This document shows, one piece after another, positions 1,877 through 11,033 of a stretch of DNA of 58,602 bases (the stretch's first letter is position 1; each line of letters begins with the position of its first letter). Both the position numbers and the translations under genes were made by a program. The notes under the pieces are model-generated. The model was not told where the DNA came from. It made no database searches and was given only the letters and a program-made list of their open reading frames with translations. Location of the stretch: positions 1 through 58,602 of IMG/VR virus record IMGVR_UViG_3300030380_005307, one strand, 5' to 3'. Source of the DNA: a virus. Lineage: Duplodnaviria; Caudoviricetes.

Positions 1877-2294
1877 CAAATTTATTAGATACATAGAAGC
1901 TTTGTATTATACTATACTATACGCGCGCTGGCCGTCAAAGCAAACGCATTTTTTTTGACTGGGGTGGGGTGACACATGATCGGTGCATTGCAGATTTTTT
2001 GCCGTTTTGTCTGACTGACTATCAGGTACTTACAAGGTCGTCAACTGGGGAGCATCCTTGGTGATCCGTATTTTGTTTGACGTTTCGCAAAAATAATCCT
2101 CTTTGAGGAACGCTCACTGCGTTCGCTTAATACCCCAAAAGAGCAATTTAAAACCTAATTAAAGTAGATAATCCAGTCCGGGATCCAGCCCGACCACCAC
2201 AAGATCCCGGTCAGATTTGACACAAAACAACATTTCAAACATTTGATCAAACAAATCAATGTAAATCTCATTAGTTATTTATATAAATTCTATG

Positions 2295-2302
2295 TATATT
2301 TA
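2295..2302 (+). promoter_or_regulatory. Putative early promoter -7 variant (TATATTTA)
   Basis: One mismatch to TAnnTTTG, in an AT-rich context upstream of the first + strand gene. Confidence 0.45.
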
Positions 2303-2384
2303 CATCATGAGAGACAAACAACATACTGAAATCAAACGTAACTCACTCACTCTCAGTGAGTTACCTAACTTAAACCCTATTAAA

Positions 2385-2879
2385 ATGAAAAATTCAACAA
2401 CAACAACAGGTTATCACTTCACCTACAAAAAATACGATGTACAGATTACTCGGCTTTTCTGGGGGGGGAACAAAGAAGGTGATTGGGCAGTCGATGTCTT
2501 CAGACCAAATGGTTATAGATTATCGAGTAAATGTTTAGCTACTACTGATGACTGCGAGTCGTTTGCCAAAGATCAGGTAGAAGATCACATCAATTCAATG
2601 ATTGATCCGGATATGATCGATTCAATCGTTTGGTATGGACTTAATTACAATCCTAACTTTATCGATGAATGTTGGTCAGATGATCCATCCTTAGCTAATC
2701 ATTTAAAAGACAAGTTTGCGATGTGTCATGAAGGAACTGATGAATTGAAAGGATGGGTAAAGATAAGGTTGTCATATGGAGTCTTCACAAGATTCTTAAC
2801 CATGTTGGACAATGGTAACAGAGAGAAGTTATACAAATACATTCTTGAGAGATATAGCCACAGAAAAGGATGGTTATAA
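2385..2879 (+). CDS. Early hypothetical protein (likely start MKNSTTTTG)
   Basis: ORF track gives 2292..2879, but the extension covers the promoter and a leader hairpin; ATG 2385 has an A-rich leader. Confidence 0.75.
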   Translation: MKNSTTTTGYHFTYKKYDVQITRLFWGGNKEGDWAVDVFRPNGYRLSSKCLATTDDCESFAKDQVEDHINSMIDPDMIDSIVWYGLNYNPNFIDECWSDDPSLANHLKDKFAMCHEGTDELKGWVKIRLSYGVFTRFLTMLDNGNREKLYKYILERYSHRKGWL

Positions 2880-2884
2880 TCAAT

Positions 2885-2940
2885 TGCCTAATTGGATGTA
2901 CCGGGGTTCGATTCCCCGGTAGGCATCGACAATAATGTCA
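2885..2940 (+). ncRNA. tRNA-like (T-arm minihelix) intergenic element E1
   Basis: TGCCT/AGGCA outer stem, ATTGGAT bulge, ACCGGGG-TTCGATT-CCCCGGT T-arm, then TC and a GACA-ATAA-TGTC hairpin. Confidence 0.75.
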
Positions 2941-2960
2941 AACAACAAACAACAAAAATT

Positions 2961-3908
2961 ATGAATAATCAAGACAAAATTTTCAAACAAGTAAACGACA
3001 TCGTTTTAGAGGGGCTAAAGCGAGATGGGATGAAATGGTTCATGCCATGGAAACCGGGTGAAGAGTTTCAACCTATGAATCACTCCTCCAAAACCTATTA
3101 CAAAGGGTTCAATGTGTTCATGCTCAATGCAGTCATGACCTATGAAAGATATGAGTTTAACCAATGGTTGACCTACAAGCAATGCAAAGCTAATGGTGGT
3201 CAGGTTAATAAAGGTGAGAAATCAACCCAGATATACTTTTGGAAGATCGGATACTTTGATCAAAAGACTGAGAAATACCTATCTGATAAAGAGATCAAGA
3301 AAGCTAATCTATCAGAAAAGATTGTGGTTGATGGTACAACACAAAACCGATACAAAAAGACATTCTCAGTCAGATATTACAATGTGTTCAATGTCGCCCA
3401 ATGTGATGGCATTGATCCAATTGTATTTGATCAGTCTGAGATCACAAAGGCAAACGAACCAATCAAGGTTGCTGATGATCTTGCAAAAAGCTATGTTGAC
3501 CGGGATGGTAAGTTAAGACTCGAACACCTACAAGATCGTGCATTTTACAATGTCAACAGAGACATGGTCAATATGCCTAAACTTGAATCGTTTGTAGACT
3601 CTGATTCGTACTACAAAGTACTTTTCCATGAGTTAGCCCATTCAACTGGACACAAGGATCGAATGGATCGTAAAAGTCTTACAGAAGTATCCAATTGGGG
3701 TGATAACACCTATGCCAAGGAGGAACTGGTCGCTGAGATTTCAGCGATGTACATCTCAGGGATGTTGGGGCTTGATCCGAAAGACTGTGATCAGAATAGT
3801 GTGGCCTACATCAAGGGATGGTGTAAGCATCTATCTGATAAGCCAAAGGAATGCTTGTATGCGATGCAACAAGCGACAAAGGTTGTTGCCTACATCCAAG
3901 GTAACTAA
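2961..3908 (+). CDS. ardC: ArdC-like anti-restriction protein (ssDNA-binding N-domain plus zincin-like domain)
   Basis: W..PW, Y.G.N, WLTYKQ...GGQV.KGEK, VFNVAQ, HELAHSTGH and YAKEELVAE motifs. Real start is probably MNNQDKIF at 2961. Confidence 0.9.
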   Translation: MNNQDKIFKQVNDIVLEGLKRDGMKWFMPWKPGEEFQPMNHSSKTYYKGFNVFMLNAVMTYERYEFNQWLTYKQCKANGGQVNKGEKSTQIYFWKIGYFDQKTEKYLSDKEIKKANLSEKIVVDGTTQNRYKKTFSVRYYNVFNVAQCDGIDPIVFDQSEITKANEPIKVADDLAKSYVDRDGKLRLEHLQDRAFYNVNRDMVNMPKLESFVDSDSYYKVLFHELAHSTGHKDRMDRKSLTEVSNWGDNTYAKEELVAEISAMYISGMLGLDPKDCDQNSVAYIKGWCKHLSDKPKECLYAMQQATKVVAYIQGN

Positions 3909-3913
3909 TCAAC

Positions 3914-3970
3914 TCCGGGATTGGATCATGGAGGGGATCGTTTCCCCTCCCCGGATCGACAATATTGTCA
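3914..3970 (+). ncRNA. tRNA-like intergenic element E2
   Basis: TCCGG/CCGGA outer stem, ATTGGAT bulge, GGAGGGG-ATCGTTT-CCCCTCC arm, then TC and a GACAATATTGTC hairpin; compensatory changes relative to E1. Confidence 0.75.
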
Positions 3971-3989
3971 TTAACTAACAACAATAATT

Positions 3990-4385
3990 ATGTTAAAATC
4001 AGTATCATTTAAAAACTTGCCGAACAAATGCAAGTGTGGTATGTGGAACGTTGACCCAAAGGATTATGATGTATCGAAGTATGTCGGTATTCGTGTGGTT
4101 GATATTCCTAAATGCCGATCAGCAAAGAAGTTCAATTCTTTAGGGATCGGAGTAGCTTGTTTCGATGGGATCGAGTATCAAGGGTTTGGAGTCAAACACT
4201 ATGTTGACTATCACCGAGGGTTTGGTGATAGCAATGGATGTTCTATGACAACTGGATTTGAGGATGGAACAATGGCTGATCTTCTTGACCATGTAACTTG
4301 TGGAAGTGAAGTTTATCTTCATTGGGAATATTTAAAGGGTCATCCTAAAGCGTATGATTGCGAATGTAAAACCGAGAAATCATGA
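3990..4385 (+). CDS. Cys-rich early hypothetical protein
   Basis: ORF track; A-rich leader after E2. Confidence 0.75.
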   Translation: MLKSVSFKNLPNKCKCGMWNVDPKDYDVSKYVGIRVVDIPKCRSAKKFNSLGIGVACFDGIEYQGFGVKHYVDYHRGFGDSNGCSMTTGFEDGTMADLLDHVTCGSEVYLHWEYLKGHPKAYDCECKTEKS

Positions 4386-4630
4386 AACAAAGACTATTAA
4401 AATTTATTTGGAACGCCTTGTCTAAAATGGACAAGGGAAGGAAATGGGATTATGAATCAGCACCATATTGTGGTCATCATCATCAGGGATTTGAAAACAA
4501 GTACATCTCTGAAAGCTATCACGAAGGTGAAGGTGGAGGATTCTCAAAAGTCTCATTGTTGGGTTACATCATTGAGATGGACAATGTGTACCAGTCAGGT
4601 ACAATGTATTATTTAGTTAAAAAGATGTAA
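4382..4630 (+). CDS. Early hypothetical protein
   Basis: ORF track; ATGA overlap with the upstream gene. Confidence 0.75.
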   Translation: MKQRLLKFIWNALSKMDKGRKWDYESAPYCGHHHQGFENKYISESYHEGEGGGFSKVSLLGYIIEMDNVYQSGTMYYLVKKM

Positions 4631-4657
4631 CCGATGTCAGGGAGGGTTACACCTCCC

Positions 4658-4708
4658 TCTGTCGATAGGTGTGTGCCTATCCTGATGAGATCAAAAGATC
4701 GAAACGGA
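4658..4708 (+). ncRNA. Type III hammerhead ribozyme (predicted cleavage after GUC, 4663)
   Basis: Stem III UCUGU/ACGGA; GUC 4661-4663; stem I GAUAGG-UGUGUG-CCUAUC; core CUGAUGA 4682-4688; stem II GAUC-AAAA-GAUC; GAAA 4701-4704. Confidence 0.9.
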
Positions 4709-4729
4709 TTATTAACTAACAACAAAATT

Positions 4730-5035
4730 ATGTTACATTCAAAATTTAACACATCGTTTGATCTGACTGAACGTTCAGTTACGATCCACATTACTTACCG
4801 AGTCAATGGTGAGAATCACTACTTATCACCTTGGTTTTTATTTGATGATCAAGGTAAGCTAATAATTGATGACAATCGAGTACTAAAGGATTGTTTTAAG
4901 TACATAGCAAGACATATTAAAACTACCATGTCAAAACTCCAACAATATTTAGAGAAAGGATATCAAGAGTATCAAGAGGAGTGGCTAATGAATTATGACC
5001 ATTTAGAAACCATCAAACAAACATTAAACGATTAA
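4730..5035 (+). CDS. Early hypothetical protein (start MLHSKF)
   Basis: The ORF-track extension from 4634 runs through the ribozyme. ATG 4730 has nearly the same leader as ATG 3990. Confidence 0.75.
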   Translation: MLHSKFNTSFDLTERSVTIHITYRVNGENHYLSPWFLFDDQGKLIIDDNRVLKDCFKYIARHIKTTMSKLQQYLEKGYQEYQEEWLMNYDHLETIKQTLND

Positions 5036-5039
5036 GATT

Positions 5040-5306
5040 ATGTCACACAAAATTTTTCATGGCTCTCTTCAAAAACGAGAGCAAAGGGAACTGGCGAATT
5101 GGAAGAAAGATTTGCCAAGTATAGTCAGAGAATTTATGGCTACCAATCCATCAGAGGATGCGATTGAGGACTTTTATACCACAAAGGTAATGCGATATAC
5201 CAAAGATAGTATAGAAGAGATTCTAAAGGATGATTTAAATAACATTGAGACTACTGTGGAAATAGTAAACCATTTCGGTAGTTTCTTCAAACCTAACAAC
5301 AAATAA
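5040..5306 (+). CDS. Hypothetical protein
   Basis: ORF track; tight operon spacing. Confidence 0.75.
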   Translation: MSHKIFHGSLQKREQRELANWKKDLPSIVREFMATNPSEDAIEDFYTTKVMRYTKDSIEEILKDDLNNIETTVEIVNHFGSFFKPNNK

Positions 5307-5316
5307 ACCAAACAAA

Positions 5317-5514
5317 ATGACAATAAAAGAATTAAAAGATGTTTTGAAAACTTACAACGACAATGATGTTGTTGTAGTAGAAGTACATGATACAATCCTT
5401 TATGAGGATTTGTATGAATTTGACATTGATTCCATAAAGATGGACAAGAATAGAAAAGAGATAAGGATTTGTCCAAAAAACCATAAAGAAGAAGTTAACT
5501 TAAACCAACAATAA
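5317..5514 (+). CDS. Small acidic hypothetical protein
   Basis: ORF track; A-rich leader. Confidence 0.7.
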   Translation: MTIKELKDVLKTYNDNDVVVVEVHDTILYEDLYEFDIDSIKMDKNRKEIRICPKNHKEEVNLNQQ

Positions 5515-5515
5515 A

Positions 5516-5713
5516 ATGAAAGAGCAAAGAGTGTATATGATAGACACAACATTTGATGATTTGGATATTCCAAAGTTTGATGATAAAAGAACAGACAAAA
5601 TTTTTATGGAAATATCTGAACAACAAGGCAATGTATATTCTTTAGGAGGATTTACAAAGGCATTTAATAGAGGAGAAATAAACTCGAACACCGATATAAT
5701 AAGAATAATTTAA
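5516..5713 (+). CDS. Small hypothetical protein
   Basis: ORF track. Confidence 0.7.
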   Translation: MKEQRVYMIDTTFDDLDIPKFDDKRTDKIFMEISEQQGNVYSLGGFTKAFNRGEINSNTDIIRII

Positions 5714-5724
5714 AAACCAATAAA

Positions 5725-5898
5725 ATGAAAGACAAGAAAACCTTTAGTTTTTATGTTCCTTGTAGTATGATGTATTACATAGAAGCAAAAAACGAAAAAG
5801 AAGCAAGACAAATTTTAATAGATCAAGGAGGGATTTCTATTCAAGGGGATTTACTAATTGATAAATCAGATTATTTAGAAGCTGAAATATATAATTAA
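5725..5898 (+). CDS. Small hypothetical protein (57 aa, MKDKKTFSFYVPC...)
   Basis: Manual translation; fills the operon gap. Confidence 0.7.
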   Translation: MKDKKTFSFYVPCSMMYYIEAKNEKEARQILIDQGGISIQGDLLIDKSDYLEAEIYN

Positions 5899-5913
5899 TT
5901 TAAAACCAATAAA

Positions 5914-6087
5914 ATGAAAGAATTAAATATTTGTTTACGTTGTGATCATTTATCTGAAGATGTATATGAAGATGAAACATTTGATATAGATGATTACCAC
6001 AGAATACAATGCCCAAAATGTTATAGTAGTGAATACTACCTTGCAACAGAGGTAGAAGAATTTATACATAAACTTAAATTAAAATAA
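5914..6087 (+). CDS. Small zinc-ribbon protein (57 aa)
   Basis: Manual translation with a CLRC...CPKC pair. Confidence 0.7.
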   Translation: MKELNICLRCDHLSEDVYEDETFDIDDYHRIQCPKCYSSEYYLATEVEEFIHKLKLK

Positions 6088-6088
6088 A

Positions 6089-6397
6089 ATGAGAATGATA
6101 GATTTAGATAAAGAAAAAGTTGAAGGAGGATGTCTTTATTGGACTGCTTTAGATGTAGCATATAAAGTAGAACATTGGGTAGAAATGCCTTCTGATGTTC
6201 AAGAAGTTTATCAAATAATCGATGAACACACAGAAGAACACCGAGAATATTTACAAGGATTAATGCAAGATGCTATTGAGGAAAATCACGAAACCATATG
6301 CGATAAAATTAATGAATGCCTTTGGGATTATATGATTGAAAATAAAACAGAAATAATCCAAACGCTTATTGAAAATAAATATTTAAAACTAAAATAA
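6089..6397 (+). CDS. Acidic hypothetical protein
   Basis: ORF track. Confidence 0.75.
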   Translation: MRMIDLDKEKVEGGCLYWTALDVAYKVEHWVEMPSDVQEVYQIIDEHTEEHREYLQGLMQDAIEENHETICDKINECLWDYMIENKTEIIQTLIENKYLKLK

Positions 6398-6398
6398 A

Positions 6399-6644
6399 AT
6401 GAAAATAATAACAAACACAAAAGTCATTGAAAAAGCTATCTCCTATGATGGGGATAGCTATATGGTATGGGAGTATACCAATGACAACAAGAACAAAGAG
6501 ATAGCCATCATGGATGATACCGGATATGATGTAAGCCTAAAGACCAAAGTACTGGAGGATGGTAAAGTAAAATCAGAAGTACATTTACTTTGTCCAGACC
6601 CGGAGGAGTACATACATGAACAATTTATAAACTTTAAAAATTAA
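6399..6644 (+). CDS. Hypothetical protein
   Basis: ORF track. Confidence 0.7.
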   Translation: MKIITNTKVIEKAISYDGDSYMVWEYTNDNKNKEIAIMDDTGYDVSLKTKVLEDGKVKSEVHLLCPDPEEYIHEQFINFKN

Positions 6645-6649
6645 ATAAA

Positions 6650-6808
6650 ATGAAAAAAAGATTTACAACAGAATTGGGAATATTTTTAAATGAATATGCA
6701 AAAAATAATTTTGACTGTGATGGTTATGACCAATTACCTGAAAACACAAAAATGTGGATTAGAAATGATATAGTTAATAAAATGGACGAATTATTAAATT
6801 TAAATTAA
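6650..6808 (+). CDS. Small hypothetical protein (52 aa)
   Basis: Manual translation MKKRFTTELGIFLNEYAK... Confidence 0.65.
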   Translation: MKKRFTTELGIFLNEYAKNNFDCDGYDQLPENTKMWIRNDIVNKMDELLNLN

Positions 6809-6813
6809 AAAAA

Positions 6814-6921
6814 ATGAGAATATATAAAGAACACAAAGATGGAGAGATCGTGGCAATTTTACACAGAGATTTTCCAAAGGTTTATGATCAGATATTAGAA
6901 TATTTAGATCAAGAAGGATAG
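6814..6921 (+). CDS. Small hypothetical protein (35 aa)
   Basis: Manual translation MRIYKEHKDGEIV...; its stop codon overlaps E4. Confidence 0.55.
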   Translation: MRIYKEHKDGEIVAILHRDFPKVYDQILEYLDQEG

Positions 6922-6973
6922 CATGGTGCATTGGGAGGTTCGATTCCTCCCTGTCCACGAGTAATAATGCTCA
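6916..6973 (+). ncRNA. tRNA-like intergenic element E4
   Basis: GGATA/TGTCC outer stem, TGG-containing bulge, GGGAGG-TTCGATT-CCTCCC T-arm, then AC and a GAGTA-ATAA-TGCTC hairpin. Confidence 0.75.
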
Positions 6974-6992
6974 ATAATTTAATCAACATATT

Positions 6993-7256
6993 ATGTCAGA
7001 ATTTGAAACAAAAAATTTAATTGTAAAATGGCAAAACTCAACAAGGAAGTTACTTGTTGGTAAAACGATCAAACACATCAGGTACTTAAATGATGAGGAA
7101 ATGGAGGCTCTTATGTGGCATTCAAGACCAATAGTAATTGTTTTTACTGATGGAAGTTTACTTATTCCCCAATCAGATGATGAGGGAAATGATGGTGGTG
7201 CAATGCTCTACCAAGACAAAGATGGTAATCATGATGTAATCCCAGTAATTTATTAA
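6993..7256 (+). CDS. Phage hypothetical protein (DDEGNDGG motif)
   Basis: ORF track. Confidence 0.8.
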   Translation: MSEFETKNLIVKWQNSTRKLLVGKTIKHIRYLNDEEMEALMWHSRPIVIVFTDGSLLIPQSDDEGNDGGAMLYQDKDGNHDVIPVIY

Positions 7257-7282
7257 GATGGCACATAACTACAACACTCCTG

Positions 7283-7600
7283 ATGAGAATATCAGGGAAG
7301 AAAATGAAGAGAACAAATAAAATAATGGTAATAATTAAAAACTTTGGTAAACGACATGGGTATGGCACAAATATCCATGTCGCTTTTATCATTAACGCTT
7401 TTTATAAACGTAGAGCGGGTGCAAATCTTGATATATTTGTAGAATCAATTGTTAATCATAATGGGATACAATTTATATCCTTACGAGAAAACGGAACTAA
7501 TAACTATTTAAATTTGGATTATATTGAAAAGTATGATCTGTACGAAATAATTATTAACGAAGTAAATAAAGACTATGAAAGCAGTTTTACAATATATTAA
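7283..7600 (+). CDS. Hypothetical protein (start may be 7325)
   Basis: ORF track. Confidence 0.6.
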   Translation: MRISGKKMKRTNKIMVIIKNFGKRHGYGTNIHVAFIINAFYKRRAGANLDIFVESIVNHNGIQFISLRENGTNNYLNLDYIEKYDLYEIIINEVNKDYESSFTIY

Positions 7601-7826
7601 AACCAAGCGAAAACAACGCAAATTGAGAATTGGTGAGCGTGATAAACTTTGGGATCAGTTAATAAAGAACGACCAAAAATGTAGAGAATTAAGGCTACAA
7701 CTGGCCAGGAAAAACAAGAAGGCTTTGACAAGACAAGATTACATTATTAACGACGATAAGGTTAGACAAATCATCTATTTATCACTACAACAACTTAAAA
7801 TTAAAAACCAACTAAAATATGATTAA
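7575..7826 (+). CDS. Basic hypothetical protein
   Basis: ORF track. Confidence 0.65.
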   Translation: MKAVLQYIKTKRKQRKLRIGERDKLWDQLIKNDQKCRELRLQLARKNKKALTRQDYIINDDKVRQIIYLSLQQLKIKNQLKYD

Positions 7827-7977
7827 AATTAAAGACGAATCGGTAGACAACCCAAACGATATAGGATATCTGCGGGCGAGTAATTATTTTTTACGCGAAG
7901 AAAATAAAAAATTAAAAGACAAACTATCGAATGTAAGTAAGTCATTGCATGATAGCTATCTTTTTACAAGAAAATAG
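7819..7977 (+). CDS. Small coiled-coil protein (52 aa)
   Basis: Manual translation MIKIKDESVDNPND...; ends before the terminator. Confidence 0.6.
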   Translation: MIKIKDESVDNPNDIGYLRASNYFLREENKKLKDKLSNVSKSLHDSYLFTRK

Positions 7978-8000
7978 TTTTGTTTGTTTGTTGATGATTG

Positions 8001-8029
8001 GGGGAAACTTTAGAGTTTCCCCTTTTTTT
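8001..8029 (+). terminator. Intrinsic terminator ending the early operon
   Basis: GGGGAAACT-TTAG-AGTTTCCCC followed by T7. Confidence 0.85.
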
Positions 8030-8030
8030 A

Positions 8031-8261
8031 TTATTTCTTAGCATCCAACAAACCTCGTTCGTATTCCAGTTGTTTTTCAATCTGAAGGATACGATCTTCA
8101 AGTTTATTTATAACAATAATCTTTTTGTCAAGACGTTCATGCACCATAGTTAGTTCATTCTTGATGGCAGTAAACTCAGCGAATATACCACCTGCAGTAA
8201 AGACTGCAACCAAAAAAGAAATGACCAGAGATAAGTTATTTTTTAGGAAAGTATCTGCCAT
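8031..8261 (-). CDS. Small membrane-anchored coiled-coil protein
   Basis: N-terminal hydrophobic helix followed by a heptad region; lone - strand gene. Confidence 0.7.
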   Translation of the reverse strand: MADTFLKNNLSLVISFLVAVFTAGGIFAEFTAIKNELTMVHERLDKKIIVINKLEDRILQIEKQLEYERGLLDAKK

Positions 8262-8282
8262 ATGGTAAAGGTAAAAAAAATT

Positions 8283-8440
8283 ACTTTCCCATTACAGAAC
8301 ACGTAAAAAATACGTTTTAAGCACGTTTTTAACACGTAGACAAAACAAGGGTTTGAAAAAAAAACATTGGTTTTTTCCATACTTTCCAAACTTTCCAACC
8401 TTTTATTTAAATTATATCAATAAAATATATTATCTTTATG
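8283..8440. promoter_or_regulatory. Divergent control region with phased repeats
   Basis: ACGT x4 at exactly 11-bp spacing (8301, 8312, 8323, 8334); TTTCCA x3 at 9-bp spacing (8374, 8383, 8392); TATCTTTA -7 variant at 8431. Confidence 0.55.
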
Positions 8441-8464
8441 AAAATTTAATTTAATATTAATCAA

Positions 8465-8656
8465 ATGCGTTTAACCAACAACCCAAGCATTGATGCGTTC
8501 GCTGATGACGAGTATCAATCCCAAGAGTTTATCAATAAACCAGAGAGAGAGCGAAAGCAAAAGCCTATCGCTACCTCTGATGATTTGATCTCTTTAGGTC
8601 GTGCAATCAGCACTGACCCTAACATTAACCCTTTATTTAAAATTTTATTCAAATGA
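8465..8656 (+). CDS. Hypothetical protein
   Basis: ORF track; first gene of the replication operon. Confidence 0.65.
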   Translation: MRLTNNPSIDAFADDEYQSQEFINKPERERKQKPIATSDDLISLGRAISTDPNINPLFKILFK

Positions 8657-8952
8657 AGCAGTACATTTTTGACCAGTTTGTTGAGAACATTCTCAAGCAT
8701 ACTGGGTTTACAAAGGAACAACTCTTTGCTAATAATCGTAAGAGTGATGTTTCGGATGCGAGAAAATTTTTGTATAAGCTATGTAAAGATCGAGGCCTAT
8801 CCAACAAAGCTATTGAAACGTACATGGAAGAGAATGGTTATATATGTTATTCAAACACCATCCCTCAAGCATTATCTACGCTTGAAAAACAAATAGCAAA
8901 TGATCCTGACTACTCGGTGATCTTACAAAAATTGTCTAACGTAGATGCTTGA
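8653..8952 (+). CDS. DnaA C-terminal (domain IV)-like HTH DNA-binding protein
   Basis: FTKEQLFANNRKSDVSDARKFLYKLCKDRGLSNKAI resembles the DnaA_C signature (L...R...V..AR...YL......S...I). Confidence 0.6.
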   Translation: MKQYIFDQFVENILKHTGFTKEQLFANNRKSDVSDARKFLYKLCKDRGLSNKAIETYMEENGYICYSNTIPQALSTLEKQIANDPDYSVILQKLSNVDA

Positions 8953-9328
8953 CCTGAAGGATATATATATTCAAGCTGAAGATGATCCTGCGACAACAAA
9001 TTTAGATGGCAAAGGATACGATGCTCAAATGTTGCATGGAGTACAAATTATGCGTGACCATGCTACAGAGAATATTAAAATTTTTAATCCAAGAGGTAAA
9101 GAATACTACGATGAACTCACTTCAGCTGAATATGAATTATTCAACCAAGGGTGGCGTAAAGGTGTTTTAAATTTAGTTCTCCAGGTATATAGAAATCGCT
9201 TGGATGTTATTGAAAAAAAAATACCTCAAGTATTAAATAACCACAAGACGTTGTCTGCTTTAAAAGAGAGAAGGAGTGGACTACTTAAAAAGTATTTCAA
9301 ACTAACACAAAAGTTAAACCAACTATGA
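8945..9328 (+). CDS. Hypothetical protein
   Basis: ORF track. Confidence 0.75.
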   Translation: MLDLKDIYIQAEDDPATTNLDGKGYDAQMLHGVQIMRDHATENIKIFNPRGKEYYDELTSAEYELFNQGWRKGVLNLVLQVYRNRLDVIEKKIPQVLNNHKTLSALKERRSGLLKKYFKLTQKLNQL

Positions 9329-11004: not shown

Positions 11005-11033
11005 AGGGGGAGTTATGCTCCTCCTTTTTTTTT
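11005..11033 (+). terminator. Intrinsic terminator
   Basis: GGGGGAG-TTATG-CTCCTCC stem followed by a T-run. Confidence 0.75.

Follow-up and report, generated by a model that had tools for sequence, protein, structure and literature searches.

Results

The hammerhead locus and its flanking genes

The analyzed stretch of DNA, hereafter referred to as the window, is a 58,602-bp IMG/VR virus record with an estimated completeness of 98%. The large terminase it encodes shares 74.7% identity with that of MW202828.1, an uncultured freshwater-spring podophage, 45% with those of the Flavobacterium 'elemo' phages and 37% with those of Cellulophaga phages; the host is presumed to belong to the Flavobacteriia. 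A + strand block at ~ 2.3–15.6 kb contains genes for an ArdC-like anti-restriction protein, an Erf-like annealing protein, an exonuclease and primase/helicase functions. Two genes downstream of the ArdC-like gene, between a stop codon ending at 4630 and ATG 4730, the + strand carries an intergenic hammerhead ribozyme motif, and both flanking genes have the same orientation. The initial annotation had placed this motif between two early genes. The intergenic site proved correct, while the word 'early' is taken only from the neighboring genes (ArdC-like, Erf, exonuclease, primase/helicase), from which an early operon can reasonably be inferred. A megablast search of positions 3900–5400 against named phages gave no match, and a search for RNA sequencing runs over positions 2200–9200 listed none. 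When related loci were sought with the flanking proteins, the downstream protein retrieved no relative, and the sole relative found with the upstream protein was the IMG/VR locus L001. The features discussed below are as follows.

3914–3955, + strand: ribozyme-free hairpin of the large intergenic gap preceding that of the hammerhead, with the leader 3971–3984 and ATG 3990 after it
4382–4630, + strand: upstream gene, 82 aa, no Pfam or PHROG family, stop codon at 4628–4630
4640–4657, + strand: GC-rich hairpin GGGAGG-N6-CCUCCC, no U-tract after it, ending exactly at the start of stem III
4658–4708, + strand: type III hammerhead ribozyme, predicted from its core, a descriptor, a short RF00008 scan, the family model R1 and family covariation
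4670–4675, + strand: loop 1, UGUGUG, fitting the U-Nm-Y-N docking motif by sequence
4693–4696, + strand: loop 2, AAAA, fitting the R-Nn-A docking motif by sequence
4709–4729, + strand: A-rich leader of 21 nt, predicted to be unstructured, running to ATG 4730
4730–5035, + strand: downstream gene, 101 aa, no Pfam or PHROG family, true start at ATG 4730 and not at 4634
6933–6951, + strand: ribozyme-free second copy of the GGGAGG...CCUCCC hairpin in the gap ahead of ATG 6993, with UGUC after it

At the left end of the window, a GroEL-like chaperonin is encoded on the − strand at 3–1115 (PHROG 5725, E 6e-83), and the annotation of MW202828.1 likewise includes groEL and a 10-kDa co-chaperonin. The divergent control region at 1150–2240, between the GroEL-like gene (−) and the early operon (+), contains several TTGACAC / GTGTCAA words, among them one perfect palindrome, TTGACACAATGTGTCAA, at ~ 1431–1447. 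These words are candidate sites for an operator or a promoter.

Core and stems of the ribozyme

Read as RNA, positions 4658–4708 of the + strand give UCUGUC / GAUAGG-UGUGUG-CCUAUC / CUGAUGA / GAUC-AAAA-GAUC / GAAA / CGGA. Three helices surround the core; loops close stems I and II, and stem III is open. There are 6 bp in stem I (4664–4669 with 4676–4681), 4 bp in stem II (4689–4692 with 4697–4700) and 5 bp in stem III, namely, U4658-A4708, C4659-G4707, the wobble pair U4660-G4706, G4661-C4705 and U4662-A4704. The core segments CUGAUGA and GAAA occupy positions 4682–4688 and 4701–4704, respectively. A type III core was defined by C3 U4 G5 A6 N7 G8 A9, G12 A13 A14, an A15.1-U16.1 pair and a non-G nucleotide at position 17. 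All invariant bases are canonical, the A15.1-U16.1 pair is U4662-A4704, and the cleavage nucleotide at position 17 is C4663, which places the predicted cut between C4663 and G4664. Every coordinate and motif that the initial annotation had given for the core (CUGAUGA, GAAA, GUC), the three stems and the two loops was correct, and its assignment to type III with a predicted cut at 4663/4664 agrees with the sequence read-out, the descriptor and the short Rfam scan.

Chance level and detection by Rfam

Searched on both strands with a type III descriptor that required stem I ≥ 4, stem II ≥ 3 and stem III ≥ 3, the 58,602-nt window gave exactly one match, at 4658–4708; the word CTGATGA occurs 11 times on each strand. 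Across 200 first-order Markov randomized windows, there were two relaxed matches in total and none with stems of the observed length.

The Rfam hammerhead models, which the initial annotation had named as a means of verification, found the site in one of the scans only. RF00008 (Hammerhead_3) scored 35.2 bits (E 8e-07) in a 67-base scan, below its gathering score of 48.5, with an alignment that spanned all 54 model positions and had a canonical core; scaled × 875 to the whole window, the E-value becomes ~ 7e-4 over all 4227 families. The larger scans gave no hammerhead match: the whole-window scan at the gathering threshold reported no matches, a 241-base scan with a permissive E-value returned noise matches only, and a search of the window's own IMG/VR record with RF00008 yielded 0 matches. 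Since the 67-base scan detects the site and the larger ones miss it, the site is below the threshold and lost to filters rather than absent, and standard Rfam annotation would miss the whole subclass for the same reasons. The family model R1 assigned 72.6 bits to 4658–4708, a score that is partly high by construction because the window sequence is part of the training alignment, and 10.8 bits to the next best place in the window. According to both the descriptor and R1, the window thus has a single hammerhead copy.

A viral family with covarying stems

To define the family, we used a pattern in which GTC, CTGATGAG, CGAAAC and two spacings were fixed and the stem positions were left free. This core-plus-spacing pattern occurs at no fewer than 131 viral loci in IMG/VR. 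Pairing was not built into the search, and covariation was assessed in the 111 distinct 55-mers among the matches listed. Standard pairs occupied 97.4% of the 1665 stem cells of these 111 listed copies, compared with 33.9–45.0% in slid controls, in which the partners were moved by 1–3 columns. Cells changed on both sides numbered 560 in the same copies (again among the matches listed) and 33–93 in the slid controls, these cell counts referring to sequences and not to independent events. Twelve of the 15 stem pairs covary among the matches listed, that is, all pairs that the pattern left free; the other three were fixed by it. Covariation of the stems together with an invariant core indicates selection on the RNA fold.

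The genes around the family members have little in common. A PHROG scan of the genes flanking 75 family copies, among the matches listed, found no shared function: no PHROG family was assigned to 57 of 66 downstream ORFs (at E ≤ 1e-5) or to 46 of 64 upstream ORFs, both among the matches listed, and the only named hits in this listed set were one ArdC-like protein, HNH or homing endonucleases and one gamma-glutamyl cyclotransferase. In L018, another relative, the gene immediately after the hammerhead is ArdC-like.

Five contigs of ~ 59 kb, chosen by pattern match, encode terminases 73–77% identical to that of the window and contain 1, 2, 3, 1 and 1 copies of the hammerhead; in the multicopy relatives, the two or three hammerheads are ~ 1 kb apart. 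Closely spaced copies of this kind would be compatible with excision or circularization of the intervening RNA, as in viroid-like or retrozyme-like elements. The window has only one copy, however, and the passages of PMC3088659 on clustered prophage hammerheads state that spliced and circular products were sought and none were found; we regard this explanation as extremely improbable.

Loop-loop docking and the hammerhead fold

According to the part of PMC2632901 that treats loop contacts, natural hammerheads dock a loop 1 of the form U-Nm-Y-N onto a loop 2 of the form R-Nn-A, the 5' U of the former pairing with the 3' A of the latter; the sTRSV(+) loops are given there as UGUGCUU and GUGA. 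The window loops UGUGUG and AAAA match this motif by sequence. Among the matches listed, a U-N3-Y-N loop 1 is present in 98 of the 111 family copies, an R-N2-A loop 2 in 94 of the 111, and both in 83. This fit to the docking motif argues for the hammerhead at 4658–4708 being a fast ribozyme that would be active under physiological conditions, and not a minimal relic.

The nearest-neighbor minimum free energy (MFE) fold of 4636–4712 (−27.8 kcal/mol) is not the hammerhead, for which the same model gives −24.7 kcal/mol. This energy model leaves out the tertiary contacts of the core and the loop-loop contacts, and the gap between the two folds amounts to a modest cost. The hammerhead of L001, a relative 92% identical to the window phage, differs from that of the window at 2 of 51 positions, and each change maintains a base pair: U-A becomes U-G in stem II, and G-U becomes A-U in stem III.

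Could the motif nevertheless be a chance match or a dead, noncleaving relic? Its sub-threshold Rfam score and an MFE fold that differs from the hammerhead fold would both fit such an origin. Nevertheless, the 200 randomized windows contained no equally good match, the core is fully canonical, both changes in L001 keep the pairing, and the loops match the docking motif, and we consider a chance match or relic very improbable. At the sequence level, 4658–4708 is thus confirmed as a genuine type III hammerhead, predicted to be self-cleaving.

The upstream hairpin and the downstream leader

The hairpin at 4640–4657, which is absent from the initial annotation, is a family-wide feature. A hairpin of ≤ −8 kcal/mol lies within the 40 nt upstream of 103 of the 123 family copies among the matches listed, as opposed to 25% of 612 control windows, and the mean upstream fold energy is −14.4 kcal/mol in the family (among the matches listed) versus −5.9 kcal/mol in control windows. 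Its position relative to the ribozyme is also constrained: among the matches listed, the end of the hairpin falls at the start of the maximal stem III or 1 nt inside it in 60 of the 103 copies, and cleavage would leave a tail of 3–6 nt after the hairpin in 91 of the 103. The hairpin stem is kept in L001, with an altered loop. An intrinsic terminator was considered for 4640–4657 and rejected, as UCUGUC and no T-run follows the hairpin, and the site is not among the 17 terminator-like sites found; ordinary terminators with a hairpin and a T-run, both counted among the 17, are present on the same strand at 8000–8023 and 11005–11025.

In a subset of the viral copies, the upstream hairpin has a distinctive top. 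The sequence GTGTC-N4-8-GACAC, with TTCAAA as a common loop, precedes the hammerhead in 36 of 123 viral copies among the matches listed (for example, in the IMG/VR loci L003, L008, L012, L014, L025 and others), and it was found in 0 of 140 genome-contig copies (among the matches listed) and not in the window. The sequence conservation of this top suggests a putative protein-binding site.

On the other side of the ribozyme, the ~ 20-nt A-rich leader before ATG 4730 has no Shine-Dalgarno sequence, and its 14-mer TTAACTAACAACAA at 4712–4725 is an exact repeat of 3971–3984. Among the matches listed, an ATG-initiated ORF (≥ 40 codons) follows 114 of 118 family copies at a median distance of 21 nt, and in 102 of these 114 listed copies the next ATG is 6–43 nt past the ribozyme. 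In 112 of the 118 copies among the matches listed, an ORF on the same strand terminates upstream of the ribozyme, at a median distance of 30 nt. An ORF of ≥ 100 aa on the opposite strand spans 14 of the 118 copies (among the matches listed), so that not all copies are cleanly intergenic.

The listed ORF 4634–5035 is in frame with ATG 4730, and the initial annotation had taken its N-terminal extension, which hides the ribozyme, to be spurious. The comparison with L001 bears this out. Because of a 1-nt indel in the L001 leader, the ATG equivalent to 4634 is not in frame with the gene and starts an ORF of just 42 aa, and the L001 downstream gene starts at the ATG matching 4730; the N-terminal extension of the window ORF is therefore spurious.

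The two hairpins at 3914–3955 and 6933–6951 lie in gaps of the same operon that have no ribozyme, which indicates that cleavage is not needed at every junction. A tRNA reading of the T-arm-like hairpin at 6933–6951 was rejected, since ARAGORN found no tRNA genes in the window.

A proposed RNA-processing cassette

The arrangement of a hairpin at the start of stem III, a 3–6-nt tail and a ~ 20-nt leader points to the making of mRNA ends and not to random insertion. We consider it probable that the hammerhead is the middle part of a hairpin/hammerhead/leader cassette, which would cut the operon RNA by itself and uncouple its two halves. A single long RNA would be made from the + strand early/replication operon, with the ribozyme folding co-transcriptionally, on emerging; loop 1 (UGUGUG) would dock onto loop 2 (AAAA) and stabilize the active core, and self-cleavage would occur after C4663, the site at which the early polycistronic mRNA is, judging from the sequence, most likely cut. 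The upstream product would be an mRNA ending in the hairpin 4640–4657 and a 6-nt tail with a 2',3'-cyclic phosphate. In the downstream product, a 5'-OH at G4664 would be buried in the stem I hairpin, to be followed by the unstructured leader and ATG 4730, and the short stem III should allow the two products to separate. The cut site and the end groups follow from established hammerhead chemistry; cleavage in vivo and its effects on stability and translation are what we infer. In bacterial RNA decay, a hairpin-capped 3' end and a 5' end paired in stem I should be poor substrates for end-dependent nucleases. With the halves of the operon physically uncoupled, the stability and translation of each would no longer depend on the other.

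The same cleavage chemistry could have the opposite outcome, with the ribozyme acting as a down-regulator and not as an insulator. Its 5'-OH end would then be attacked by a host 5'-3' exonuclease, for which the glmS ribozyme product and RNase J1 offer a precedent, and the distal genes would be expressed less or only briefly. The downstream genes, which are mostly small ORFans (57 of 66, among the matches listed), would fit dosage-sensitive accessory genes. However, the median spacing of 21 nt to the ATG (among the matches listed), the repeated leader and the placement of the 5' end in stem I look designed for translatability, and down-regulation therefore appears unlikely to us.

Mosaicism around the cassette

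The comparison between the window and L001 also revealed a sharp boundary. Nucleotide identity is 95% in both the upstream gene and the leader and 96% in the hammerhead, and it falls to 49% ~ 30 nt into the downstream gene, the value for the body of that gene; at the protein level, the upstream genes are 94% identical and the downstream genes only 38%. The small window genes at 5040–6397 (~ 1.4 kb) are missing from L001 (compared region, L001 3350–3870). The slot upstream of the 82-aa gene is likewise occupied by different genes, of 161 aa in L001 and 131 aa in the window, which share only the C-terminal end. The mosaicism between the two phages clusters at the gaps that hold the hairpins and the ribozyme.

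These data raise another question, namely, whether the cassette acts mainly as DNA, that is, as a homology patch for the swapping of accessory genes between related phages, with an RNA activity that is secondary or ancestral. The identity of 95–96% through the upstream gene, ribozyme and leader before the drop to 49%, the absence of the 5040–6397 genes from L001 and the presence of the leader 14-mer twice in the window would all fit. Such a role, however, rests on one pairwise comparison and leaves the stem covariation with an invariant core unexplained. We regard a mainly DNA-level function as rather improbable; it would not exclude the RNA-processing role, as the two are compatible.

Occurrence in cultured phages and prokaryote genomes

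No R1 match was found in MW202828.1, the closest named relative by terminase, in phi38:1 (Cellulophaga) or in Gundel_1 (Tenacibaculum), and a match of 13.9 bits in phi18:3 was not accepted. One convincing copy, of 33.6 bits, is present in the cultured phage vB_FspP_elemoA_13-1A, which grows on Flavobacterium sp. BAL314. Its cleavage site is GUA, its core reads CUGAAGA, and its loop 1 is 7 nt long, as in sTRSV(+); the copy lies 14 nt ahead of the start of a gene. A second match in the same phage (17.5 bits) is doubtful, its stem I being unconvincing on inspection. The two matches are at MT497065.1 16681–16788 and 18489–18545 (L142); the convincing one is unannotated, and the doubtful one is covered by phanotate43, a short ORF call on the opposite strand that is apparently spurious. 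Since MW202828.1 has no match, the hammerhead is dispensable in this phage group; judged from these genomes, it is common in the group yet dispensable. The elemoA_13-1A copy makes the processing hypothesis testable in a real infection.

The same fixed-spacing pattern was also found in at least 135 stretches of prokaryote genomes (loci L143 onward). The matches listed come mostly from metagenome-assembled genomes (MAGs) of Patescibacteria (Saccharibacteria, Paceibacterota and others), and, among these listed matches, the Patescibacteria copies often occur in groups of two or three at a spacing of ~ 0.7 kb. Full stems are present in 118 of 139 distinct prokaryote-genome copies among the matches listed. 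The word GTTCTTT lies within 30 nt downstream of 27 of 140 genome-contig copies; the corresponding counts are 19 of 2199 for control windows and 0 of 123 for viral copies (copies among the matches listed). By inspection, it is complementary to loop 2 and the 3' strand of stem II, which makes an alternative pairing possible. A literature search found, among the matches listed, no published link of hammerheads to Cellulophaga, to a Flavobacterium phage or to crAss, and none to Patescibacteria.

Discussion

Intergenic hammerheads of phages and prophages were described in 2011, together with cleavage in vitro and in E. coli, a proposed role of prophage hammerheads flanking genes in the processing of polycistronic RNA, and an ardA anti-restriction gene directly downstream of a hammerhead, as set out in sections of PMC3088659. 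A passage of a 2019 review (PMC6765202) still described as open what bacterial and phage hammerheads are for. The statement in the initial annotation that hammerheads occur in phage intergenic regions, with mostly unknown roles, agrees with these portions of both sources. The window element shares with the prophage hammerheads of Perreault et al. 2011 a location between co-oriented phage genes, an anti-restriction gene nearby and the proposed role in RNA processing. It differs from the examples in that text in being a single copy and not one of a pair or triplet flanking a gene or gene block, so that no gene is 'flanked' in the 2011 sense. It is, moreover, of type III with docking-motif loops, although the 2011 alignments may already include this subclass.

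The type III prototype with a solved full-length structure, sTRSV(+), has the same topology, a loop 1 that likewise starts with UGUG and a 4-nt loop 2 ending in A that fits R-Nn-A, according to the portion of PMC2632901 cited above. The loops themselves differ, with 7-nt UGUGCUU versus 6-nt UGUGUG and GUGA versus AAAA in sTRSV(+) and the window, respectively (PMC2632901, same portion). The setting also differs: sTRSV(+) is a rolling-circle satellite RNA, whereas the window hammerhead is part of a DNA phage operon.

A useful engineered parallel is the RiboJ-type synthetic insulator, in which a hammerhead is placed before a coding sequence and its cleavage gives a defined 5' end regardless of the upstream context. 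This device has an extra hairpin downstream of the ribozyme, whereas the window hairpin is upstream of it and would stay with the 5' product.

The hammerhead at 4658–4708 adds no new kind of ribozyme and is an ordinary member of a very common phage class. The present analysis contributes numbers for the hairpin/ribozyme/leader architecture, shows that the loops fit the docking motif, exposes a blind spot of Rfam and points to a cultured phage that carries a copy and could serve for a test. A bolder version of the processing hypothesis can be offered only tentatively: the cassette would be very widespread and distinct, extending over the terminase-related relatives of Flavobacteriia phages, other viral contigs and many Patescibacteria MAGs; the hairpin would stack on a deliberately short stem III, cleavage would serve as terminator-independent punctuation of the operon, and the cassette would double as a recombination joint. 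If this were true, ribozyme cleavage would manufacture a hairpin-capped mRNA 3' end, and standard Rfam annotation would be missing the cassette.

In practical terms, the gathering threshold and filters of Rfam overlook the phage hammerhead subclass to which 4658–4708 belongs. The architecture of the family is clear and testable.
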